Source: a virus
Lineage: Duplodnaviria > Heunggongvirae > Uroviricota > Caudoviricetes
IMG/VR virus record: IMGVR_UViG_2541047787_000006
Coordinates: 1-40,878 of that record
Reading direction: 5' to 3' (one strand)
DNA: 40,878 bases
A program made the translations under genes and the position numbers. Below the pieces are notes generated by a model. That model was not told the origin of the DNA, did no database searches, and saw only the letters and a list, made by a program, of their open reading frames with translations. This document shows positions 5,637 through 40,878 of this stretch, piece after piece. Position 1 is the first letter of the stretch, and every line of letters begins with the position of its first letter.

Positions 5637-5651
5637 TTACCTTTCAGGTGA
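5637..5651. promoter_or_regulatory. Operator-like palindrome TTACCTTTCAGGTGA
   Basis: Matches the TTACC-N5-GGTAA family found in the immunity region; an extra TTACC half-site lies at 5587-5591. Confidence 0.45.
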
Positions 5652-5690
5652 TTTGCAAAACGTGCTGGATAGCAAACAAATTATTTGATA

Positions 5691-5706
5691 CTGTATAAAT
5701 ATACAG
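5691..5706. promoter_or_regulatory. LexA (SOS) box CTGTATAAATATACAG
   Basis: Perfect CTGT-N8-ACAG dyad with AT-rich spacer, flanked as TACTGTATAAATATACAGTT, about 20 bp upstream of the 5728 start codon and next to a TTGATA hexamer. Confidence 0.6.
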
Positions 5707-5727
5707 TTATTGCATGGAGAAGATAAG

Positions 5728-5985
5728 ATGCAGCAGTATCACTATCCACTGGAAGACGGATTTACCGAAAGGATTCACACGCCGGGAGGCGTCAGGTCAC
5801 TGGTGGAGGGATCGCACTTGATGAAATTACTCCGGGATCTCGATAAGGATGGATTTAATGTCGATGGCCCACTTGCCGAACTGACTGCACTGATTAACTA
5901 CGTCACCAGCTCACAGATGTCTATGCAGGATCTGCAAACACATCTCGACTATTGTGCCGAACAATTACGAAAACAAACCCGGTAA
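5728..5985 (+). CDS. Small protein homologous to the C-terminal domain of the antirepressor at 7373-8029; candidate SOS-induced antirepressor
   Basis: GGAGA RBS 7 nt upstream; product IHTPGGVRSLVEGSHLMKLL..DLQTH aligns with [25 protein letters not shown] of the 7373 protein; the ORF track start at 5710 is TTG without an RBS. Confidence 0.5.
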   Translation: MQQYHYPLEDGFTERIHTPGGVRSLVEGSHLMKLLRDLDKDGFNVDGPLAELTALINYVTSSQMSMQDLQTHLDYCAEQLRKQTR

Positions 5986-6009: not shown

Positions 6010-6516
6010 TTAACAGTCGTAAAATTCCGGGTCCCACAAACTTGCATCGCGCGGCATGGATTCTAAATTTTTCAGCCGCAAAATTCTGTCACACTCGACA
6101 AGAAGTTTTTGTTTTTGTTCGTCAATTTCTACTTTTTTGTGTGCTGGCTCATCCCAGTAATCCAGAAGAAACGCATGTCGCTCAGACGTTACAAGATAAA
6201 TCACATACACATCACTGGTTGGTATTTTTTTATGCTTGTTGGTGGCCTTGTCTTTCTTCCCGGATGCCCAGTTTTTCCAGCATTGTTCCGTACCGCTCTC
6301 ACCAAACTTGTCAGTATAGTTTCCGATGTTTACGTGAACGTGGCGTATGTGATATTCCAGCATCTCTTTCGGTGGATCCCGAAACAGAGTGTCCTTTCCG
6401 AAATCCTTATGATGACCGTAGCGCCAGTGATCTATGAACGCGTTTTTGATAGGTATTAGCTCAGGGTCCTTCCCAAAAATTCCAGGGTGAACCAACCCCT
6501 GGAATTTATTCAGCAT
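6010..6516 (-). CDS. YafO-like toxin-domain protein (putative mRNA interferase-type toxin), module 1
   Basis: Motifs FGKD..F.DP, RHVHVN, IPTSD, VIYLVT and EPAHK resemble the YafO family as recalled from memory; paralogous to 8331-8876; start ATG at 6516 overlaps the upstream stop (ATGCTGAATAA). Confidence 0.45.
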   Translation of the reverse strand: MLNKFQGLVHPGIFGKDPELIPIKNAFIDHWRYGHHKDFGKDTLFRDPPKEMLEYHIRHVHVNIGNYTDKFGESGTEQCWKNWASGKKDKATNKHKKIPTSDVYVIYLVTSERHAFLLDYWDEPAHKKVEIDEQKQKLLVECDRILRLKNLESMPRDASLWDPEFYDC

Positions 6517-6925
6517 CGTCGTAGAGCTCCTGAGCCATATCTTCGGCAGTGCGTGCAAACATCCTGCGCGAGATTGCATGAGATTTCTCGACGGACATCT
6601 TTGGGACCTCATGCATAACATTTTTGGGAGTTGTGTAATAGCCTATTACAATTTTCACACCTGACTTATGATTAATATCAGCATAATATACTTCTTGTTC
6701 AGACGTTTCACGACGAACATAATCTGCCAGTTTTCCACATTTAAATTCCCCTCCCTGATGTTTTAAAATCTCCTCAACTGCACTATTTTCAGTGAAATAC
6801 CGAATAAGAAATTTCTGTCCAGTCTCTTCAGCATGAGGTATAACAGTATTATTGGAAGCCCGAACAATGGCCTTACTCAATATTTCATGGTCTTTATTTT
6901 TTTCTGATTTCCTCAAATGCTGCAT
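6506..6925 (-). CDS. Upstream partner of toxin-like gene (candidate antitoxin or immunity protein), no recognisable family
   Basis: 139 aa from the ATG at 6925; overlaps the downstream start by 11 nt; C-terminal tail KMSVEKSHAISRRMFARTAEDMAQELYDDAE resembles the tail of the 8177 small ORF. Confidence 0.4.
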   Translation of the reverse strand: MQHLRKSEKNKDHEILSKAIVRASNNTVIPHAEETGQKFLIRYFTENSAVEEILKHQGGEFKCGKLADYVRRETSEQEVYYADINHKSGVKIVIGYYTTPKNVMHEVPKMSVEKSHAISRRMFARTAEDMAQELYDDAE

Positions 6926-6961: not shown

Positions 6962-6976
6962 CTACCTCTAGGGTAA
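6962..6976. promoter_or_regulatory. Operator-like palindrome CTACCTCTAGGGTAA upstream of module 1
   Basis: TTACC-N5-GGTAA family member about 40 bp upstream of the 6925 start on the minus strand; TTGCCA and TAGAAT hexamers immediately upstream on that strand. Confidence 0.45.
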
Positions 6977-7057: not shown

Positions 7058-7101
7058 TTGAAATAACGTGAGTTATGCATTTATTATTACCTTTGCGGTA
7101 A
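7058..7101 (+). promoter_or_regulatory. Sigma70-like promoter (TTGAAA-N17-TTATTA) with overlapping operator TTACCTTTGCGGTAA at 7087-7101
   Basis: Hexamers read directly; perfect TTACC-N5-GGTAA dyad at the predicted transcription start. Confidence 0.5.
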
Positions 7102-7192
7102 ATTTACATCGCACTCCTCTTGTGCCATAGTAATCGGGCACTGGCAAAATCCAGTGCCGGGATTGGTCTCCCGGATTACTAAGTGGCGCATA

Positions 7193-7214
7193 CCACGCCA
7201 GACGTGGTTTTTTT
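7193..7214 (+). terminator. Rho-independent terminator inside the antirepressor leader
   Basis: Stem CCACG / CGTGG, loop CCAGA, followed by seven T; about 120 nt downstream of the 7058 promoter and 160 nt upstream of the 7373 start. Confidence 0.55.
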
Positions 7215-7372
7215 ATGCGTATAGCACAGTCATGCCAGAATTATGGTGGGCTGAATGGGGGTCCGAAAGGACGCCGGTACCACTTAGGCCGGTAAGACCA
7301 ACTCCGTTCAGTTCACCACCATCTGATTGGTCTCAGCGGTGGTGATGTAATTCGCTAAGTGGAGACGCCATC

Positions 7373-8029
7373 ATGAACGCTCAACTCATCCCCGTATTCA
7401 ACGGCACTATATCTAACGAAACAGCCCTACTTTGTAATGCCCGCGATCTGCACGCTTTTTTAGGTGTTAAAAAGGTGTTTGCAGCATGGATTACAAATCG
7501 CATATCAGAATACGAATTCATTGAAAATCAAGACTATATTTTGCTTTCCAATTTGGGAAAGCAAACATCTGGTAGAGGCGGCCACAACCGCAAAGAGTAC
7601 CACCTTACCCTTGATACAGCCAAAGAGCTGGCGATGGTCGAGCGTAACGAAAAAGGTCGCCAGGTGCGACGCTACTTCATTGAATGCGAGAAACGTTTAA
7701 GACAACAAGAAACAAAAGTGGAGAAGGTCTTGTCAGGCTTCATGCCCGCCATTATGGAGGCGATCAAGCTGGAAGACAAAAAAGAATACAGTGCCCCGCT
7801 GAAGCCCGGCTACCGCAGCCTGATTCATTCTCCGTCTGGTGTTCTCGGCCTGACGGAAAACTCACTGCTGATGAATCTGCTGAACCAGTTACAGGAAGAC
7901 GGGCACGACGTATCGGGCGCGGCGGCGGAGCTGACCACCATGTTCTGCTACATCGTCGGTGTGAGCAAATGCCTGCGTGATATCCAGACCCACGCGGAGT
8001 ACATCAACGACAAGGCTGGGTTCTTCTGA
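7373..8029 (+). CDS. Antirepressor, AntA/AntB-type N-terminal domain plus C-terminal domain shared with the 5728 protein
   Basis: N-terminal [34 protein letters not shown] matches the AntA antirepressor pattern; GGAG RBS at 7361. Confidence 0.7.
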
Positions 8030-8176: not shown

Positions 8177-8356
8177 ATGCGAAACGAAAAATTGCAGATG
8201 CGTAGAGCGCAAGCTGCCGCAAGACGTTCTTTCAATGGAAGCGTAGAGTACGTAAAAGTTACTATGACAAAAGATCACGCAAGTCGCGTATCCAGCGCTT
8301 TCTTTGATTCTCGTAACAATAAGGAAAATTATGAGTTCGTCTGCGTCGCAGAATGA
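8177..8356 (+). CDS. Small 59-aa protein overlapping the start of toxin-like gene (candidate antitoxin), module 2
   Basis: Not in the ORF track (under 60 aa); GAGG RBS at 8166-8169, ATG at 8177; overlaps the 8331 gene by 26 nt; tail KVTMTKDHASRVSSAFF...VAE resembles the C-terminus of the 6506-6925 product. Confidence 0.35.
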   Translation: MRNEKLQMRRAQAAARRSFNGSVEYVKVTMTKDHASRVSSAFFDSRNNKENYEFVCVAE

Positions 8357-8876
8357 TAAAAATCAAATTGTCAGATATAAGGGTCGAGTATTGCATACGC
8401 AAAATTTCTCGGCCCTTTGTGCATCTGATCTTGAGCTGAAGAAAGTATCTGATGCCTTTGCCCAGTATTGGAAAACGGGATACCATCCATCTCTTGGTAA
8501 AGATGCTGCATTTGCTCGTCCGACAGAAATGCTTAAACTAAATGTCAGGCATACTCATGTCGATAACCAAGACTATATTCCAGAAGATAGTGATAAAAAA
8601 CACACTGGTAAAAAATCATCTTGGGATGCATGGAAAAATATAGCGTCTGTACAAGTAAAATGCATACCAACAAGTGATTGCTTTTTAGTTTATTCGGTAA
8701 ATCACAATCGTGATGCGCTGGTTATGTTTTTTGTTGACGCAGATGCTCACAACATAACTGAGCAAGAAGAGTTTAAAGAGGCAGCAATCACTATCAGTTA
8801 TCAATTCTTTGAGAAAACAAAAACAGAACCAATGCCTTTAGAAGAAGATCTTTTTTCTGATAAATGGAAGGAATAG
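8331..8876 (+). CDS. YafO-like toxin-domain protein, module 2 (paralog of 6010-6516)
   Basis: AAGGA RBS 5 nt upstream of the ATG at 8331; shares W.TGYH, LGKD..F.RP.EML, RHTHVD, IPTSD, LVYSV and DAHN motifs with the 6010 product. Confidence 0.45.
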   Translation: MSSSASQNDKNQIVRYKGRVLHTQNFSALCASDLELKKVSDAFAQYWKTGYHPSLGKDAAFARPTEMLKLNVRHTHVDNQDYIPEDSDKKHTGKKSSWDAWKNIASVQVKCIPTSDCFLVYSVNHNRDALVMFFVDADAHNITEQEEFKEAAITISYQFFEKTKTEPMPLEEDLFSDKWKE

Positions 8877-21871: not shown

Positions 21872-21922
21872 CTTCTTTCTCCATTAGTGGGTCTGTTACG
21901 ACCCACAGGTTAATAACAGGCG

Positions 21923-25919: not shown

Positions 25920-26242
25920 AGCAAAGAGTTCATTCCGGTTATTAACCTGACTGGCTTGTCGTTAAATTGAACAGGTGGAGTGAGCTTTTATTTTGAGCAG
26001 TACGGCGTATGGCACATGCGCCGATAGCGGTCTGGATACGTTTAAGGGGCACCCTCCCTTGCTCGAGCAAACGAACCAGGTAGCCGGAATGTGCAAGTCG
26101 AGCGGTTTTATTCCGCGCACGGGGATTCACCATCCCGGCGATTCGGTGTGACGCCTCGGAAGAGACGAGGGTGCAACGATGAGAGCATTTATGGAGCCGC
26201 GACAAAGTGTGGCGCCTTAACAGGCTAAGTGCTCTCAGCGTT

Positions 26243-26319
26243 GTGGCATTAGCTCAGTTGGACAGAGCAACCGCCTTCTAAGCGGTTGGTCGCAGGTTCG
26301 AATCCTGCATGCCACGCCA
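26243..26319 (+). tRNA. tRNA-Arg, anticodon UCU
   Basis: Cloverleaf read by hand: acceptor GTGGCAT/ATGCCAC, D-arm GCTC..GAGC, anticodon stem ACCGC/GCGGT with loop CTTCTAA, T-arm GCAGG-TTCGAAT-CCTGC, discriminator G and CCA. Confidence 0.85.
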
Positions 26320-26362
26320 GAATCACGCCTAAGGACCGTGATGCCAGAAGTTCCAGGGGCTT

Positions 26363-26404
26363 GGCGGTGATGGTTTCCCTTGAAGGACTATCACCGCCCT
26401 TTTT
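26363..26404 (+). terminator. Rho-independent terminator downstream of the tRNA
   Basis: Stem GGCGGTGAT / ATCACCGCC followed by CTTTTT. Confidence 0.55.
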
Positions 26405-26482
26405 ACAGCAGGACGCCATTGCGATGACTTCATGCTGTAAACCAGTACAGCCACGGAAGGCATAACTCATTGCTTCCAGTTC

Positions 26483-26506
26483 GCCCGGTTCGCCGGGCAT
26501 TTTTTT
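26483..26506 (+). terminator. Second rho-independent terminator
   Basis: Stem GCCCGG / CCGGGC followed by seven T. Confidence 0.6.
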
Positions 26507-26522
26507 AAGGTGAGATTAGACT

Positions 26523-26894
26523 ATGAGTGACAAAGACATTGAATCTGAAATTCAGGCTAAAGGTTTAGCCGCGCCGCGCGTTACGCCAGACCATATCGAG
26601 AGCATTATTGCTCAGGAGGCATATTTCACAGCAGAAGATGGTGCCTTTGGCGTAGCCATAAAAGCGAAACATACTGGCGGAGAGGTAAACTACCAGCCGC
26701 ACGAATCACTTTCTCTGCTGACGTTCTGCGTCCTGGTGCTGCGCAACGGCTTCACCGTCACCGGAGAGAGCGCCTGTGCAAGCCCGGAAAACTTTGATGC
26801 AGAAATTGGTCGGAAGATTGCCCGACAGAATGCTGTAAACAAAATCTGGATGCTTGAAGGTTACTTGCTGAAGCAGAAGTTAAGCGAGCAATAA
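26523..26894 (+). CDS. Conserved phage protein, possibly N4 gp49 / Sf6 gp66 family
   Basis: AAGGTGAG RBS; 123 aa; family assignment is from memory only; oriented opposite to the flanking late genes. Confidence 0.5.
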   Translation: MSDKDIESEIQAKGLAAPRVTPDHIESIIAQEAYFTAEDGAFGVAIKAKHTGGEVNYQPHESLSLLTFCVLVLRNGFTVTGESACASPENFDAEIGRKIARQNAVNKIWMLEGYLLKQKLSEQ

Positions 26895-26913
26895 CACCGT
26901 GACATATCACAAA

Positions 26914-26941
26914 CAGCCAGCCTATGAGCTGGCTTTGTTTT
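26914..26941 (+). terminator. Terminator after the plus-strand insert
   Basis: Stem GCCAGC / GCTGGC followed by TTTGTTTT. Confidence 0.5.
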
Positions 26942-26984
26942 ATCCTCATCAGAGGATATCAACAACATTATCCCCTCAAGCGGA

Positions 26985-28460
26985 TTAAGCATAGGGATCG
27001 TAATCTGTGATGGCCTTGCCTTGCTGGTTCTGCTGCCCGGGAATTCGCAGACGCTTAGACACAGGGAACGCAAACGTCAGCAGTAGCGCATCGCCTTTAC
27101 CCGGTGAACGCCCAAGCCGCTCCTTGATATCTTCCTTCGGTTCGATAACGATTTTACCGTCCACTCGAACTTTGTACTCTGCCGCCGACAGGTCGTCTGC
27201 TGTTTCCTGGTCGTCCAGCGCGCCGCCTAGCTTCAGCCACGTCTTGCAGCTGTTGAACATCTCTCCGCGCTTATTTAGCATCTGGGGATCGGTCGAGCCG
27301 CCGCCGAACGGGATTAGCTGCCATGTCCTGCCCCAGCCGTCACCGATGGACTTCAGCCCGGTGCCGTAACCGAAGTCGATGAACACCGCGTCAGCCTGGT
27401 ACTGGTCTTCAAAGTCGGCGATTCGCTTAGCCATAATCAAATCGTCGGTGGTCTTGTTGCCGGTCCAGAGCACTTTGCTGTGCAGCCCCTGCCGCAGGTA
27501 TATCACCGCGTCATCAACTCCGGAATACGCCGGGTCGACGCCGATAATCACAGGAGCGTGAGCAACCTGCCCGGCGGTAACCACCCGCTTCATGGCCTCG
27601 TCTGTAAGGCCTGTTGGGATAAACTGGAGTTCTGACGCGTCAGGGAAGATCCCCCGCACGCGGACCTTCACGAAGTCGCTGTCTTCGCCGTAGTCGTCAA
27701 CCCATTTCTGCAGCTGCTGCTTGTTTGTGCCTTCCACGGTGCGGCTGTCAATCTGCGCGCACTTCCAGCGGTGCTTGTACTTGCGGAAGCATTCGCGGAA
27801 GCGCCCGGTGTTACGCGTCGGGTTCCCAAACGCCACCCAGATAATTTCCGTGTCTTCGTCCGTCAGCGCACCTTCAGCAACTTCCCACACCAGATCTGCA
27901 ATGTTGGACGCTTCATCGAATACCACGATGATACGCTTACGCTCGTTGTGCAGCCCGGCGAACGCCTCTGTGTTGTGCTCAGACCACGGTATTGCGTCAG
28001 CTCGCCAGCGCTTGTCGTGGCCTGGGTCATTGCTGTACATCGCCGTGGCGGTGCAGGTGAACCACTCTTTCGTGATAGCCAGATTCGACCATTTGATGAT
28101 TTCCGGCCATGTCTTGGTGCGCAGCTGGTTGTCGGTGTTGGCGGTCACCACGACCTTACAATCCTCGCAAGTGGACATGCCCCAGTTGATCAGCATTGAG
28201 ATGAATGCGGATTTACCAATACCGTGACCAGAAGCGCGTGCCAGCATAAGCGGCTGATATCGCGTCTCTGGATTCTGCAGGTGATCACGTATCTCTCGGA
28301 ACGCATCGGCCTGCCACTGACGTGGACCGGTGGCATGTGCCAGTTCAGTCCCCTCTTCCCCCCACGGGAACGCATAGAGGGCATAACCAAGCGGATCGTG
28401 AGTAAACCCTGCAATATCCTCGATCAACTGCTCTTCAGGAGATAACACTGTATCTGTCAC
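26985..28460 (-). CDS. Terminase large subunit
   Basis: 491 aa; Walker A-like GHGIGKS; nuclease-type C-terminal region; GTG start. Confidence 0.9.
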   Translation of the reverse strand: MTDTVLSPEEQLIEDIAGFTHDPLGYALYAFPWGEEGTELAHATGPRQWQADAFREIRDHLQNPETRYQPLMLARASGHGIGKSAFISMLINWGMSTCEDCKVVVTANTDNQLRTKTWPEIIKWSNLAITKEWFTCTATAMYSNDPGHDKRWRADAIPWSEHNTEAFAGLHNERKRIIVVFDEASNIADLVWEVAEGALTDEDTEIIWVAFGNPTRNTGRFRECFRKYKHRWKCAQIDSRTVEGTNKQQLQKWVDDYGEDSDFVKVRVRGIFPDASELQFIPTGLTDEAMKRVVTAGQVAHAPVIIGVDPAYSGVDDAVIYLRQGLHSKVLWTGNKTTDDLIMAKRIADFEDQYQADAVFIDFGYGTGLKSIGDGWGRTWQLIPFGGGSTDPQMLNKRGEMFNSCKTWLKLGGALDDQETADDLSAAEYKVRVDGKIVIEPKEDIKERLGRSPGKGDALLLTFAFPVSKRLRIPGQQNQQGKAITDYDPYA

Positions 28461-29089
28461 TGATTACCATCCTGACGTTCTTTGAGTCGCTTCCTGGCTG
28501 CTGCTATGCGATCAGCAATTGTCACATTCACATTAACATCCAGGCGTTCTTTGAATGCGTTGACGTCGACGTGCTTACCAATCAGTTCGAGGTTTTTCAC
28601 CTTGTCGGGCCATTTCACCTTCTTCAGGATATGCTCGACATCCTCAACAGAGAGATCCGCCTCGCCATTCTCTTTTTGCAGAGAGGCCTGAGTCGTCTTG
28701 ATAGTAGCGATATCCATCGCGCTGAGAGAGGTGCGCCATACCTTAGGCCACTCAGCGATCGGCTTCATCCCGCCGTCGTCGTTCAAGATATCCAGGACAT
28801 CCATCTGGTCGATCTCTACCAGGCGCATGAGGACGTAATCAGCGCTGACGCGCATTCGTTTGTTGCGCTCCTCCATCAACTCGGCAATCCGTTTTTGAAT
28901 GCGTTCATCGCGCATCATGACACTGGCTTTAACTGCCGCTGTATTTGGGGAGAATCCTGCGTTAATCGCTGCCTGAGTCTGGTTTTCAGGCGTTTTGATG
29001 TATGACTGGCAATAAGCCTCCTGCATTGCTGTTAGTGGCTTAAATTGCGTTGATTTGCGTTTATAGGTTTTAGGTTCAGCAGGCATCAT
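28457..29089 (-). CDS. Terminase small subunit
   Basis: N-terminal HTH-like region TAMQEAYCQSYIK...AAINAGFSPNTAAVKAS typical of small terminases; start chosen at the internal ATG with a GGTGG RBS rather than the ORF track start at 29185. Confidence 0.65.
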   Translation of the reverse strand: MMPAEPKTYKRKSTQFKPLTAMQEAYCQSYIKTPENQTQAAINAGFSPNTAAVKASVMMRDERIQKRIAELMEERNKRMRVSADYVLMRLVEIDQMDVLDILNDDGGMKPIAEWPKVWRTSLSAMDIATIKTTQASLQKENGEADLSVEDVEHILKKVKWPDKVKNLELIGKHVDVNAFKERLDVNVNVTIADRIAAARKRLKERQDGNQ

Positions 29090-29095
29090 AACCAC

Positions 29096-29128
29096 CGTGG
29101 TAATAGTTACCGTTGTGGTAATAGTACC
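29096..29128. repeat. Tandem direct repeat GTGGTAATAG(T)TACC x2 immediately upstream of the small terminase gene
   Basis: Two adjacent copies, each an everted GGTAA-N3-TTACC arrangement. Confidence 0.5.
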
Positions 29129-29132
29129 ATGC

Positions 29133-29158
29133 AAAATAAAGCCGCCATAGTTGGCGGC
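29133..29158 (-). terminator. Minus-strand rho-independent terminator separating the small-gene block from the late operon
   Basis: On the minus strand: stem GCCGCCA / TGGCGGC followed by TTTATTTT. Confidence 0.5.
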
Positions 29159-29206
29159 AGTATTCAAAACCATCAAATTCATCATGCATAATCTACTCGT
29201 GACATG

Positions 29207-29548
29207 TCACACTATTAATTTCGTTTCATGCCAGCCTTTAGTCACCCAGCATTGCGAGTCACCATTACACGGGCATGAATTAACTGGAACTCTCTCGCCG
29301 CACTTACCGCAACATTTTCTGCTGATCGATTTTATACGCCCGCGCACGCGTGCATCATCCTGGCGGATCAGTAACGCTATATACTCACCAAATTCGTAAG
29401 GCGCACGCCCGGGGCGACGCGTGGCACAGTTACTCTCCAGCATTTCAATTTCCTGAGCATCAAGCACAATTTCCAGCTTACGCACACCAGATGCAGCTTG
29501 TCTGGCTCTCTGAGCGGCTTTGCGCTCTGCTGCTGATTTAGCCATCAA
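29207..29548 (-). CDS. Hypothetical protein with basic helical N-terminus and Cys-rich (zinc-binding-like) C-terminus
   Basis: C-terminal CCGKCG...CPCNGDSQC cluster; last gene before the late-operon terminator. Confidence 0.45.
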   Translation of the reverse strand: MMAKSAAERKAAQRARQAASGVRKLEIVLDAQEIEMLESNCATRRPGRAPYEFGEYIALLIRQDDARVRGRIKSISRKCCGKCGERVPVNSCPCNGDSQCWVTKGWHETKLIV

Positions 29549-29822
29549 TATTTACCTTTATCGCGAACACCTTTACCGGCTTATCGCCGAAGTGCGGATG
29601 TGTGATTGTTTTCACTTCATATCCGTTATACGGGACGTCTATTCTGCGACTGGAATCGTCGCGCTTCGGATATCCCTTTGTGATAATCAGACGGTCATAC
29701 TCCAGGAGCATAATTCGCTTATTCCAGTAGTCATTACACAGGCGATACTCTTCTGTTTTCTCTCCGCGAATCATGGCATCGAAGTATTCACCTTTGACGG
29801 CAAGTTGCAGGTTAGCCATCAC
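29538..29822 (-). CDS. ASCH / DUF3850-like (PUA-fold) protein
   Basis: Pattern KGEYFDAMIRGEKTEEYR resembles the ASCH-type consensus. Confidence 0.45.
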   Translation of the reverse strand: MMANLQLAVKGEYFDAMIRGEKTEEYRLCNDYWNKRIMLLEYDRLIITKGYPKRDDSSRRIDVPYNGYEVKTITHPHFGDKPVKVFAIKVNIDG

Positions 29823-30046
29823 TCATCATCCTCATCCCAATCATCGTCGTTATCGCCAACCGACCATAACAGTGGGTTGGTAACTTTGCTTATCTGGCTT
29901 GCATATCCGCTACGTCCAAGGCTTCTCAGTACGTTGTATATTTCAAACATCTCAGTGCGTTCATCGCCAATGTCTAGCTGGCAGGCCAGTGCGTGACACT
30001 CTGAAGCGAGCGAGTCTAACTTTTGGAGGAATTCTGATTTACTCAC
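29819..30046 (-). CDS. Small acidic hypothetical protein
   Basis: 75 aa, acidic C-terminal tail; overlapping neighbours. Confidence 0.4.
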   Translation of the reverse strand: MSKSEFLQKLDSLASECHALACQLDIGDERTEMFEIYNVLRSLGRSGYASQISKVTNPLLWSVGDNDDDWDEDDE

Positions 30047-30588
30047 GGATTCACCTCCTGCGGCGGTTCTGGTAGCAGCATCCAGAACAAGGCGTTCCCT
30101 AACCAGGATAAAGTGCCGTCGCTCAACTCCACGTATTCCCCTTGCACCTGTCCTGCCATATACTCACCGTGCTTTGAATAAATTAAAATCCAATCATCTT
30201 GAGCGGGCATTCGCTCACTACAGCTTATCCAACCATCCGGAGTTACCGGAGTTGGTCCATCGAATTCGGGCATGTCAGGACCTTTTCTGATAGCTTTAGC
30301 CAGCTCCAGCGGGTCATCGTAAAGCCAGTCGCCAGTTTGTGGGTGATTTGCTTCTGCAAGCTGCGCAGCCCATTCAAGACCATCTTTTTGACCTTGGAGA
30401 TAATCAAGCGGCAACTCTTCATGATTACTTGCAGGTTCTGCACTATCAGCTTCGCGCCGCTTCTGTAGCTCTGCTGCCATCGCTCTCACGACTTCAACTG
30501 GTGCCCTTGCAGCAAACTCTATGTTGGTGATCAGCTCATTAAGATATTGCTCGCTGGGATACTGTTTCTTATCGGTTATAGTGGTCAT
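30043..30588 (-). CDS. DUF551-domain protein
   Basis: C-terminal DGWISCSERMP..WILIY pattern typical of DUF551 in lambdoid early regions. Confidence 0.55.
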   Translation of the reverse strand: MTTITDKKQYPSEQYLNELITNIEFAARAPVEVVRAMAAELQKRREADSAEPASNHEELPLDYLQGQKDGLEWAAQLAEANHPQTGDWLYDDPLELAKAIRKGPDMPEFDGPTPVTPDGWISCSERMPAQDDWILIYSKHGEYMAGQVQGEYVELSDGTLSWLGNALFWMLLPEPPQEVNP

Positions 30589-30590
30589 AG

Positions 30591-30803
30591 CTATTTCACC
30601 TTAATCTCAACATTTCGCAGCTTTAGCTCTACTGGCAGGTCTGACTTTCCGGTTAATGCTAATGCGAGATTTTCTGGAGTAATGAGAGCCGTTATTGTTT
30701 TCCCCATCGAGATACGAATGATTATTCGTATCTCGCGATCGTCACATGCTCCCGGTCGAACAATTGAGATTTGTCCGTTCATCTCACTCTCCTTTGATGC
30801 CAA
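30591..30803 (-). CDS. Small hypothetical protein
   Basis: 70 aa ORF, tightly packed with neighbours. Confidence 0.4.
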   Translation of the reverse strand: MASKESEMNGQISIVRPGACDDREIRIIIRISMGKTITALITPENLALALTGKSDLPVELKLRNVEIKVK

Positions 30804-32496: not shown

Positions 32497-32561
32497 GATT
32501 TACCCCTGAGGTAATTAAAAACCACATAAGACATGAAATCAATAGATTTTAGAATATTTTA

Positions 32562-34808: not shown

Positions 34809-34844
34809 AGCTATTGCCTGATATTTATTTCAGATAATAAATAT

Positions 34845-34907
34845 TCACCTATAAGGTAACAAAAATCAAGGATAGTTACCTATGGGGTGCATTTACCTGT
34901 TGGGTAA
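34845..34907. promoter_or_regulatory. Immunity-region operator cluster: TCACCTATAAGGTAA (34845-34859), TTACCTATGGGGTGC (34876-34890), TTACCTGTTGGGTAA (34893-34907)
   Basis: Three copies of the TTACC-N5-GGTAA dyad within the 154-bp gap between the cro-like and repressor-like genes. Confidence 0.6.
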
Positions 34908-34962: not shown

Positions 34963-35547
34963 ATGAAAAGTATCCAGGACGTCCGCAGGCAAAATCTCAA
35001 CGACTTGATCGACCGTGAATTCAATGGTGTTCAGACGCGGATGGCAGAAAAACTTGGAACTCAGGCAAATCTGGTAAACCGCTGGGCTCTTGGCAAGAAG
35101 GTTATCGGCGACCAGGTTGCGCGAAAAATTGAAGCTGCCGCAAATAAACCCCGTAACTGGCTTGATATCGATCGCTCGCTTTCTCAGGAGGGTTTTCAGC
35201 CTGTCGGCCCAAGCGACATTGGTCAGCTGGCGGCTCACAACCTGGAACGCTGGATGAGCGAAAGCCGCGACCTTTCAACTCAGGGAAAACTTCACCGCGC
35301 ATCCGGCGTCGCCCAGGTGACAATCAGCCGCCTGTTAAACAATGAGGTCAGCGTTTCCATTTCCACCCTGGAGAATGTTGCATCCGCATTCGGGCGTCAC
35401 GGCTATGAATTACTGATTCACCCGCACGACCCTGCGACTATCAACTATGATCGCTCGCGCTACGCATTGTTACCCGAAACCGAGAAAGCAAAGATCGAAA
35501 GTTACATTGAATTTGTCATCAACCAGAACGAAAAAAACAAACAATAA
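34963..35547 (+). CDS. Prophage repressor candidate with two HTH motifs and no peptidase domain
   Basis: Two HTH-like segments (QANLVNRWALGKK and GVAQVTISRLLNNE); no recognisable S24-type cleavage module; divergent from cro. Confidence 0.55.
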   Translation: MKSIQDVRRQNLNDLIDREFNGVQTRMAEKLGTQANLVNRWALGKKVIGDQVARKIEAAANKPRNWLDIDRSLSQEGFQPVGPSDIGQLAAHNLERWMSESRDLSTQGKLHRASGVAQVTISRLLNNEVSVSISTLENVASAFGRHGYELLIHPHDPATINYDRSRYALLPETEKAKIESYIEFVINQNEKNKQ

Positions 35548-35569
35548 AACTATAGTTTTCAGCAAGTAA

Positions 35570-35591
35570 GCCGCCTCATGGCGGCTTTTTT
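35570..35591 (+). terminator. Rho-independent terminator after the repressor gene
   Basis: Stem GCCGCC / GGCGGC, loop TCAT, followed by TTTTTT. Confidence 0.6.
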
Positions 35592-35604
35592 ATTGCCTGT
35601 TAGA

Positions 35605-35626
35605 TTACCCGCCGGGTAATTTTTTT
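35605..35626 (+). promoter_or_regulatory. Perfect operator dyad TTACCCGCCGGGTAA followed by a T-run (operator and/or second terminator)
   Basis: TTACC-N5-GGTAA at 35605-35619 then seven T; dual reading possible. Confidence 0.45.
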
Positions 35627-35638
35627 AACTCATATCTA

Positions 35639-35681
35639 TTGACATCAAACCAGATACGCATAATTATTACCTCAACGGTAA
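35639..35681 (+). promoter_or_regulatory. Early rightward promoter (TTGACA-N16-TAATTA) with overlapping operator TTACCTCAACGGTAA at 35667-35681
   Basis: Consensus -35 hexamer, AT-rich -10, operator at the predicted transcription start. Confidence 0.55.
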
Positions 35682-39627: not shown

Positions 39628-40878
39628 TTATTCCCCCGCCATCCACTTCTCAAACTTCGACGGGGAGAACGGAATCAGATCCGTATGCTCCCCGTTAATC
39701 CAGGAATCAATCATATCGGCCCACTGCTGCAACATGTAGGCGCGCTGTCTGGCGTATTCCGCTTTGTTATATACGGCGCGCACACCTTTCTGCTCATGTG
39801 CCAGAGCCTTTTCAATCCAGTCTGAAGGATAACCAGCCTCATGCAACAACGTACTGGCTGTACGACGCATATCGTGTACGGTGAAGTCCTGAATATGCTC
39901 ACCATCTTCATTTATTATTTTCACCGTTCTGTCGATCAGAGAGTTCAGCGCGGCATTAGATAATGGCTTCCGGAAATTGTAACGACCAGGAACCAGATAT
40001 TCACTTCCACCAGCGCACATCTGCAACCCGACCAATATATCCTGTGCCTGTTTAGGCAGGTAAATAACGTGCGCCCGGCTTCCCTTCATGCGGTCTGAAG
40101 GAATTGTCCATGTCCATTTTTTAAAATCTATTTCATCCCACGTTGCATTGGTGAATTCGCCTTTACGAACCATAGTGATAAGCACCAGCCTTAAAGCCAT
40201 TTTCATAGTGCCCATAGCACCAATGGCATCCAGCGTACGGAAGAACAGGCCAATTTCTTCTGGTGTCAGTGTTCGCTCTCGTGGTTTAAATATGGCGATA
40301 GACGAAGGTTTAATGTCAGCCGCAGGATTAAACAAACCATGACCACGGTCATTGGCGTGACGGTATACGCTGCTGATGATCTCCCTTGCCTGTACTGCTG
40401 TTGCCCGACCACCGCGTTCGACAATCCGGTCACACAAATCACGAACCATCGATGTGGTAATTTCAGTCATCATTTTGTTGCCAAGAACTGGAAGTATGTC
40501 ACGGTCGATCACCGCCTGCTTCATTGCGCGGGTACTGTCAGCCAGGATGACGTGTTTCATATAACTGTCGGTATGTACCGTAAACGTCTCGGCACCACGA
40601 ATCTTTTTGATACCGTCACGTTTAGCCGCAGCCGGTGACTGGCCTGCTTTAAGCAGCTTCTTTGCAGCAATCAGTTCTTCTCGCGCTTCTGCCAGGCTGA
40701 TACCGTCACGCCCATACTGCCCGATTACCAGTGTTTCGCGGCGACCGTTGATACGGTAGTCATAGCGAAACGAGACCGTGCCTGACGTAAGCACAGCTAC
40801 ATACAGCCCGTCACGATCGGAGACCTTGTACAGTTTGTCCTGCGGCTTGAGGTTTTTTAATTTTGTATCGGTAAGCAC
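39628..40878 (-). CDS. int: Tyrosine integrase, P4-type; N-terminus truncated by the window edge
   Basis: N-terminal LTDTKLKNLKP arm-binding signature; C-terminal catalytic region with HDMRRTA and the tyrosine-containing segment VRAVYNKAEY; ORF runs to the last base of the window. Confidence 0.85.
   Translation of the reverse strand: MLTDTKLKNLKPQDKLYKVSDRDGLYVAVLTSGTVSFRYDYRINGRRETLVIGQYGRDGISLAEAREELIAAKKLLKAGQSPAAAKRDGIKKIRGAETFTVHTDSYMKHVILADSTRAMKQAVIDRDILPVLGNKMMTEITTSMVRDLCDRIVERGGRATAVQAREIISSVYRHANDRGHGLFNPAADIKPSSIAIFKPRERTLTPEEIGLFFRTLDAIGAMGTMKMALRLVLITMVRKGEFTNATWDEIDFKKWTWTIPSDRMKGSRAHVIYLPKQAQDILVGLQMCAGGSEYLVPGRYNFRKPLSNAALNSLIDRTVKIINEDGEHIQDFTVHDMRRTASTLLHEAGYPSDWIEKALAHEQKGVRAVYNKAEYARQRAYMLQQWADMIDSWINGEHTDLIPFSPSKFEKWMAGE

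Follow-up and report, generated by a model that had tools for sequence, protein, structure and literature searches.

The prophage carried on this stretch of DNA very probably leaves lysogeny through the induction switch already known from the epsilon15/phiV10 type, in which a small antirepressor made under LexA control, Ant, would disable a repressor, Rep, that does not cleave itself. On every sequence criterion examined, the ant/rep pair is a member of the Ant/Rep family of Salmonella phage SPC32H, and LexA binding, SOS induction and Ant-Rep binding are predicted for this pair from sequence.

The window, by which we mean the whole stretch of 40,878 nucleotides analysed, opens with yfgH and yfgI, two genes of the E. 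coli chromosome (bases 1-1163), followed at 1164-1180 by ATTGAGTGGGAATGATT, the guaA 3'-end attachment core, and closes with the integrase gene (39628-40878), the prophage being the remainder after position 1180. The same core is used by phiV10, epsilon15, and vB_EcoP_ZX5 (hereafter ZX5) (PMC9782041). Inserted at the guaA 3' end, the prophage is a phiV10-type member of the epsilon15/phiV10 group in the genus Uetakevirus. Some prophages of this kind, phiV10 and TL-2011b among them, were found in EHEC hosts (O157 and O103).

The ant gene and its predicted promoter with a LexA box

The features at and around ant are as follows.

5637-5651, no strand assigned: operator-type palindrome TTACCTTTCAGGTGA, one mismatch to TTACC-N5-GGTAA, its centre ~57 bp upstream of the predicted ant start
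5666-5694, plus strand: predicted ant promoter, with -35 TGGATA (5666-5671), 17-bp spacer, extended -10 TG (5686-5687), and -10 TACTGT (5689-5694), from conservation
5689-5708, no strand assigned: LexA box TACTGTATAAATATACAGTT, 16-mer core at 5691-5706, from weight matrix and conservation
5728-5985, plus strand: ant, stand-alone antirepressor of 85 aa, SPC32H Ant orthologue, phrog_450, from PDB match and SPC32H identity
5993-6008, no strand assigned: GC-rich hairpin GGCCGCAAGAGCGGCC, terminator candidate between the convergent ant and YafO-like genes

The ant gene runs from an ATG at 5728, preceded by GGAG at 5716-5719, to 5985, and lies between the tailspike gene, from which it is divergent, and the virion-protein operon, far from rep; the hairpin behind it, GGCCGCAAGAGCGGCC, has a T-run on the minus strand only. 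The product aligns over 83 of its 85 residues with chain E of PDB entry 5D50, "Anti-repressor protein" (E 4e-47), and is 88% identical to the SPC32H ant product. It also matches residues 137-210 of the 7373-8029 product with 42% identity (31/74, E 3e-16), in line with the preliminary description, which had called the small-gene product homologous to the C-terminal domain of an AntA-type antirepressor. No Pfam or NCBIfam model matches Ant, PHROGs labels phrog_450 "unknown function", and the gene, whose locus is found in 529 of 5426 complete E. coli genomes (~10%), is annotated "hypothetical protein" in every example among the matches listed from these genomes. All phage records with Ant (35/35) also encode a Rep homologue.

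A LexA-type dyad had been proposed about 20 bp upstream of this gene, and both the site and its spacing hold. The dyad CTGTATAAATATACAG is present at 5691-5706 and is near-consensus, the surrounding 20-mer at 5689-5708 (TACTGTATAAATATACAGTT) matching 18 of the 20 positions of the textbook LexA consensus TACTGTATATATATACAGTA; the 20-mer ends 19 nt and its 16-mer core 21 nt before the ATG at 5728. Weight-matrix scoring, the check suggested earlier, was carried out with an ad hoc symmetrised matrix of 24 known LexA sites of E. coli and gave the box 27.75 bits (heterology index 1.47), more than any training site (maximum 26.5) and more than the best site in 30 shuffled windows (19.2). The next-best LexA-type site in the window reaches 11.7 bits, so that the weight-matrix scan found no other box above 11.7 bits, a value under the shuffle maxima, and neither the YafO-like genes nor ant2 have an SOS box of their own in this window scan. 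Matches to CTGT-N8-ACAG at 21893 and 26435 were rejected as LexA boxes, their matrix scores marking them as weak or chance occurrences.

After a first comparison of nine phages, the conservation analysis was widened to 18 loci drawn from roughly a dozen enterobacterial genera (Escherichia, Salmonella, Enterobacter, Klebsiella, Citrobacter, Erwinia, Superficieibacter, Pseudocitrobacter, Scandinavium, Kluyvera, and Buttiauxella). In 16 of these 18 loci a LexA box scoring 13-28 bits precedes the ant ATG by 17-23 nt; the remaining two (Erwinia dacicola and Kluyvera, with the box 1 and 3 nt from the ATG) are cases where the script chose an upstream ATG. Across the 18 loci the arms of the box are invariant and its centre is variable. 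Upstream of the box and into it, TGGATA, a 17-bp spacing, TG, one base, and TACTGT are likewise invariant, the spacer sequence itself varying, and we therefore read these elements as the -35, extended -10, and -10 of a promoter. On this reading the ant promoter would span 5666-5694 and transcription would begin near 5701, the left arm of the LexA box serving as the -10 hexamer TACTGT. The assignment draws on conservation because a generic sigma-70 scan found no promoter 5' of ant; the alternative -35 hexamers TTGCAA (5653-5658) and TTGATA (5685-5690) were dropped, their partner hexamers not being conserved.

Two known phages bear on this arrangement. The record of phage 186 likewise assigns the -10 of the SOS promoter p95 to the left arm, TACTGT, of a LexA site, and the 186 LexA 20-mer is identical to the one upstream of epsilon15 ant. 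SPC32H and SPC32N differ by a single base across the 213-bp upstream stretch compared, and that base (CTGTATGTTTATACAG versus ...ATAAAG) falls inside the LexA box, where it is the C of the right CAG arm, equivalent to C5704 in the window. Kim and Ryu (J Virol 87:11775, 2013) reportedly found one base changed in SPC32N, relative to SPC32H, within the LexA site that overlaps the promoter of ant, a change that makes Ant constitutive.

Rep, its candidate operators and the SPC32H family

The repressor gene and the operator-type sites beside it are listed below.

34834-34907, no strand assigned: candidate operator cluster (34845, 34876, 34893) between rep and the divergent cro-like gene, including a minus-strand promoter TTGTTA-17-TATTAT
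34963-35547, plus strand: rep, two-domain repressor of 194 aa without S24, SPC32H Rep homologue, from 5D50_A match and Pfam
35605-35681, plus strand: early promoter TTGACA-17-AATTAT (35639-35667) bracketed by two exact operators 62 bp apart (35605-35619 and 35667-35681), from motif scan

The repressor had been described as having two HTH motifs and no S24 peptidase module, a picture that agrees with the domain searches. Pfam assigns residues 106-147 to HTH_3 and, weakly, residues 21-61 to a YdaS-type HTH, NCBIfam returns weak HTH-type matches only, and the proposed HMM check for a cryptic S24 domain gave no Peptidase_S24 match, even at E 0.1. Rep aligns at full length with chain A of PDB 5D50, "Repressor" (residues 1-190 versus 2-197, E 4e-42), and a cryptic S24 domain was rejected on the strength of this end-to-end alignment together with the Pfam and NCBIfam results. 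As Rep has no protease domain, RecA-driven self-cutting is not expected. The protein is 100% identical to the Rep of phiV10, ZX5, phiv142-3, and others, and 42% identical to SPC32H Rep (52% in the N-domain and 37% in the C-domain).

The 5D50 chains are Ant and Rep of SPC32H (Rep-Ant complex), and the SPC32H GenBank record names the genes ant and rep. The SPC32H switch was described by Kim and Ryu in J Virol in 2013 and by Kim et al. in PNAS in 2016, with structures PDB 5D4Z and 5D50. A mechanism in which a LexA-controlled antirepressor acts on a non-cleavable repressor, as suggested in the preliminary description, thus has a precedent in the orthologous SPC32H pair (5D50_E, E 4e-47; 5D50_A, E 4e-42), for which it was demonstrated by experiment and by structure. 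According to PMC7380047, self-cleavage of LexA in SPC32H-type systems leads to production of the antirepressor, which inhibits the repressor by protein-protein contact. Two further papers describe SPC32H Rep as binding DNA as a tetramer that is broken when tetrameric Ant binds two Rep dimers (PMC9638917), and its C-terminal domain as responsible for tetramerisation and Ant contact (PMC9986798). For the pair in this prophage the Ant-Rep interface is assumed, by analogy, to be that of SPC32H, since Rep is only 42% identical to its SPC32H counterpart, whereas Ant is 88% identical.

The resemblance to SPC32H extends beyond the proteins. Both phages belong to the genus Uetakevirus and share the position of ant divergent from the tailspike gene, the 88% identical Ant, a Rep that is a full-length homologue with the same two-domain build, the distance from LexA box to ATG, the operator palindrome, and the 62-bp operator pairing. 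On the other hand, Rep is only 42% identical, the palindrome upstream of ant has one mismatch in the E. coli clade, and the interval from ant to the virion genes holds ~3.7 kb of additional genes in this prophage, absent from SPC32H, which include the second antirepressor gene ant2. The parallel drawn earlier with Gifsy-type prophages stands for the logic and not for the sequences. As judged from sequence features, the prophage has in common with Gifsy-1/-3 GfoA/GfhA and 186 Tum a non-cleavable repressor and a small LexA-boxed antirepressor gene outside the immunity region. In contrast, the Gifsy-1 and 186 tum regions have no detectable similarity to Ant or Rep; when Ant, the ant2 product, and Rep were compared by tblastn with all of Gifsy-1 and with positions 26000-30624 of 186, the lowest E was 0.54. 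We therefore rejected an assignment by sequence to the Gifsy or 186 Tum families, the family being that of SPC32H Ant/Rep.

The motif TTACC-N5-GGTAA occurs in nine exact copies in the window, where 0.02 are expected, and in five further copies with one mismatch. Three candidate operators lie between rep and the cro-like gene (one exact, one with one mismatch, and one with two), another 62-bp pair is found at 32500 and 32562, and the remaining copies precede structural gene blocks and accessory genes. Both epsilon15 and SPC32H have the same operator motif and the same 62-bp pairs, and the epsilon15 GenBank record annotates these sites as "protein_bind: repressor".

One such palindrome stands upstream of ant itself. 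This site (5637-5651) is perfect in the Salmonella phages SPC32H and epsilon15, in the latter of which it too is annotated as "protein_bind: repressor", and has one mismatch in the E. coli clade. Its distance to the ant ATG is 74-77 nt at 16 of the 18 loci, the 58 nt at the other two reflecting a mis-picked upstream ATG. With its centre ~57 bp upstream of the predicted start, it is too far away for simple occlusion. Repression of ant by Rep through this site is also unlikely because SPC32H and SPC32N differ only in the LexA box over the 213 bp, and the single LexA-box mutation is reportedly (Kim and Ryu 2013) enough for constitutive Ant in SPC32N, a phenotype which argues that loss of LexA control alone turns ant on. 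The palindrome may serve the tailspike promoter or looping. Its conservation is a point against our best explanation, which leaves it unaccounted for.

The ant2 gene and its RNA leader

The region upstream of the second antirepressor gene contains the following features.

7087-7131, plus strand: exact operator palindrome (7087-7101) abutting the isrK promoter, with -35 TTTACA (7103-7108) and -10 CATAGT with an upstream TG (7126-7131), from conservation
7138-7214, plus strand: isrK-family RNA with terminator (Rfam 67.7 bits, gathering score 50)
7239-7323, plus strand: C4-family antisense RNA, RF01695 (Rfam 61.2 bits, gathering score 45)
7327-7364, plus strand: ant2 leader with C4 target sites TTGGTCT (7327-7333) and CTAAGTGG (7355-7362), from complementarity to C4
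7373-8029, plus strand: ant2, 218 aa, AntA N-domain (residues 22-92) and Ant-like C-domain (~135-218), from Pfam and a full-length phrog_377 match

Ant2 joins an AntA domain (PF08346, E 4.2e-26) to a C-domain of the Ant type. In sister phages Bro-N stands in place of the AntA N-domain and the C-domain is nearly identical; ORF4 of ZX5, for example, pairs a Bro-N N-domain with a C-domain that shares 96% identity with that of Ant2, and in phiV10 the ant2 counterpart is truncated within the C-domain. Within the phage collection, the ant2-type C-domain occurs only in records with an SPC32H-type Rep (34 records), and the Salmonella members have no ant2. Overexpression of ZX5 ORF4 cuts lysogen numbers 1000-fold, from 1e9 to 1e6 (PMC9782041). 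We infer from the N-domain swaps, the restriction to Rep-carrying records, and the effect of ZX5 ORF4 that the C-domain is a Rep-specific module.

The gene had been taken to be a second antirepressor under repressor control, and an exact operator does abut the -35 of the promoter; this account was nevertheless incomplete, in that isrK and C4 RNAs precede the gene and their loops pair with the Shine-Dalgarno region. The half-sites of the operator at 7087-7101 are invariant and its centre is variable in 8 phages. The promoter TTTACA-17-CATAGT (7103-7131) is conserved and fits an isrK 5' end at 7138. The operator centre lies ~44 bp upstream of the isrK start, a position compatible with either repression or activation by Rep.

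Downstream of this promoter, ant2 is apparently gated by antisense RNA. Two stretches of C4, CCACTTAG (7280-7287) and AGACCAA (7295-7301), can pair perfectly with the ant2 leader over 8 and 7 nt, and the target CTAAGTGG overlaps the ant2 Shine-Dalgarno GGAG (7361-7364). Both sides of the C4-leader pairing covary, giving three specificity types among 8 phages. The isrK RNA contains copies of both C4-pairing sequences (7163-7169 and 7179-7186), which follow the covariation in most phages, two having a one-base mismatch, and all related phages with an ant2-type gene (7/7) have isrK and C4. No icd-like frame was found between the end of C4 (7323) and the ant2 ATG (7373), the 49 nt holding no ORF.

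This organisation recalls two known systems. As in the immI locus of P1/P7 (c4, icd, ant1/2), an AntA-domain protein stands behind a C4-family RNA, two short C4 stretches pair with the leader and the ribosome-binding site, target copies lie upstream, a repressor operator is found at the promoter, and many operators are dispersed over the genome; in P1 the synthesis of Ant is held down by c4 RNA, and 22 operators of C1 are spread over the genome (PMC8546580). Unlike P1/P7, the prophage has no icd-like frame, its repressor is Rep and not C1, the C-terminal domain is of the SPC32H Ant type, and the target copies sit inside an isrK-family RNA with its own terminator. The Gifsy-1 isrK-orf45-anrP locus (Hershko-Shalev et al. 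2016, PMC4825925) likewise places a terminator-bearing isrK-family RNA ahead of an antirepressor gene whose expression depends on read-through; here, in contrast, C4 lies between isrK and the antirepressor gene and no orf45-like frame is evident. The target of the antirepressor encoded downstream of isrK and C4 in this prophage is presumably Rep.

Induction of the prophage and alternative readings

In the switch that we favour, lysogeny would be kept by Rep bound at TTACC-N5-GGTAA at many prophage promoters, LexA would hold ant through a box covering the -10 hexamer and start site of its promoter, and C4 would block any ant2 translation in the lysogen. DNA damage would destroy LexA and Ant would be made; by homology with SPC32H, Ant would bind the C-terminal tetramerisation domain of Rep and split the DNA-binding tetramer into dimers, and release of Rep would free early promoters such as that at 35639, opening the early operons. 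Such induction is documented for ZX5, a sister phage in which mitomycin C raises the free-phage titre from 1e7 to 1e9 PFU/mL (PMC9782041). The Rep and Ant of ZX5 are identical to those of this prophage.

A further layer involving ant2 can be drawn, to which we give somewhat less than even credence. If Rep represses the promoter at 7103-7131, loss of Rep would raise the transcript carrying isrK, C4, and ant2; C4 would mask the ant2 ribosome-binding site, the decoys in isrK would titrate C4, and ant2 would then reinforce the decision to induce. A gate of the P1 immI kind on ant2 could lock in induction or act during infection.

Among the other readings, the one that survives best, and which we regard as unlikely, is that the small Ant is not the inducer of its own Rep, this role falling to the ant2 product or another factor, and that Ant acts elsewhere, for example on the repressors of co-resident prophages. 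It would fit the uneven identity of the pair to SPC32H (88% for Ant, 42% for Rep), the 1000-fold lower lysogeny on overexpression of ZX5 ORF4 with its fused-type C-domain, and the antirepressor cross-talk between prophages that PMC7380047 documents for Gifsy and Fels-2. Against it, Ant and Rep co-occur in 35 of 35 phage records, and the position of ant, its LexA box, and its promoter are kept even between clades with Reps more than 50% different, which speaks for a single conserved function; moreover, the Salmonella members have the same system without ant2, and ZX5 is mitomycin-inducible while ant alone has a LexA box in the window. Far less probable is the reading that Rep is cut by RecA-stimulated self-cleavage through a cryptic protease module, the LexA box merely tuning an accessory gene: nothing was found in its favour beyond the general rule for lambdoid repressors, no Peptidase_S24 appears even at E 0.1, the NCBIfam matches are weak and HTH-type only, and Rep can be aligned along its whole length to a repressor of solved structure in which the C-terminal half serves for tetramerisation and Ant binding. 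It is hardly credible that the dyad is a chance palindrome of an AT-rich intergenic region in which the sigma-70 scan found no promoter, or that it serves the divergent tailspike gene, because its score exceeds all shuffles, its arms are invariant around a variable centre at a fixed distance from the ant ATG in 18 loci, it lies ~160 bp from the tailspike start and overlaps a conserved -10/TG pointing to ant, and the SPC32N base change falls inside it.

LexA-driven Ant acting on Rep thus remains the preferred explanation of how this prophage is induced. The switch as such had been described before, down to a crystal structure, and the finding adds an orthologue to it and no new principle. What is new is the pairing of LexA-wired and RNA-gated copies of the same antirepressor domain, undescribed as far as we searched; no description of a two-input reading of such copies was found in the literature searched, and the ZX5 paper, which studied the fused protein, leaves the small ant, LexA, C4, and SPC32H unmentioned (PMC9782041). 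We tentatively propose that E. coli Uetakevirus members may possess a two-input circuit built on one portable Rep-binding domain, with a LexA-wired stand-alone copy and a copy fused to AntA or Bro-N behind a Rep operator and a C4/isrK gate, where the fused copy would act as a positive-feedback lock or as superinfection anti-immunity and the ~80-aa C-domain would set repressor specificity. From a practical point of view, because ant is labelled hypothetical, has no Pfam or NCBIfam model, and is of "unknown function" in PHROGs, annotation pipelines miss how these prophages sense SOS-inducing antibiotics. From a regulatory point of view, the paired antirepressors may offer a tidy system in which a damage signal and an RNA-based immunity signal would converge on one repressor.

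Putative Rep operators along the prophage

The palindrome TTACC-N5-GGTAA, the putative operator of Rep (the presumed target repressor of the antirepressor Ant), occurs in nine exact copies in the window against 0.02 expected, with five further copies carrying one mismatch.

5637, 6962, 7087, 8102, 9351, 25906, 29089, 29107, 32500, 32562, 34845, 34893, 35605, 35667: putative Rep operator copies, exact and one-mismatch

These sites are scattered along the prophage in the same manner as the dispersed C1 operators of P1. A spacing of 62 bp occurs twice (35605/35667 and 32500/32562), and such 62-bp pairs are also found in epsilon15 and SPC32H, a Salmonella phage with a characterized Ant/Rep pair; sites of this type are already annotated in the epsilon15 record. 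A terminator scan also reported a hairpin with a downstream T-run at 35602-35622; this assignment was rejected, the element being the operator palindrome at 35605-35619, and the candidate terminator of rep is listed below.

35568-35587: candidate rep terminator

The RNA module of ant2 and its YafO-like neighbors

The second antirepressor gene, ant2, is preceded by two RNA genes, and two paralogous YafO-like genes stand one on either side of this isrK-C4-ant2 module.

6010-6516, minus strand: first YafO-family toxin-like gene (phrog_1651)
6506-6925, minus strand: 139-aa gene without assigned function (phrog_9503)
7138-7214: isrK RNA gene
7239-7323: C4 antisense RNA gene
8304-8876, plus strand: second YafO-family toxin-like gene (phrog_1651; Pfam YafO_toxin, E 1e-5)

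Across Uetakeviruses, three specificity types can be distinguished among the two segments of C4, their targets in the ant2 leader, and the copies in isrK; the pairing between C4 and leader covaries perfectly. The phrog_9503 gene is upstream of the first YafO-like gene and overlaps it, a layout also seen in toxin-antitoxin pairs. The Rep-type palindromes at 6962 and 8102 lie upstream of the two YafO-like units, and LexA-site scoring of the window found no SOS box for either.

Prophage boundaries and tRNA gene

The host flank, comprising yfgH and yfgI (1-1163), extends to the attachment core; because it runs into this core, the window represents a chromosomal prophage. The second junction is just past the integrase gene with which the window ends on the right. 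A tRNA gene occupies the gap separating the portal and terminase gene blocks, both of which are on the minus strand.

1164-1180: attachment core ATTGAGTGGGAATGATT, at the 3' end of guaA
26243-26319, plus strand: tRNA-Arg gene, anticodon TCT

Antirepressors in related phages

The "anti-immunity protein" of phiV10, phiV10p23 (L003:4071-4655), is truncated within the Ant-like C-domain relative to its counterparts in ZX5, TL-2011b, and the window, and may be a frameshifted or inactivated copy. Phage TL-2011b carries, within its accessory region (L013:9223-9290), a match to sar, the antisense RNA of P22 immI, at 44.8 bits (gathering score 43), which hints at a further immI-type module in this accessory slot. 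The LexA 20-mer of the phage 186 tum promoter is identical to that upstream of epsilon15 ant, although the antirepressors of these two phages are unrelated in sequence.

L026:3045-3064: LexA 20-mer of the phage 186 tum promoter (p95), TACTGTATGTTTATACAGTA

Ant (5728-5985) shares 88% identity with its SPC32H orthologue, whereas Rep (34963-35547) shares 42% with SPC32H Rep (52% in the N-domain and 37% in the C-domain); the operator half-sites are unchanged. Judged from these identities, Ant is far more constrained than Rep, its presumed target.
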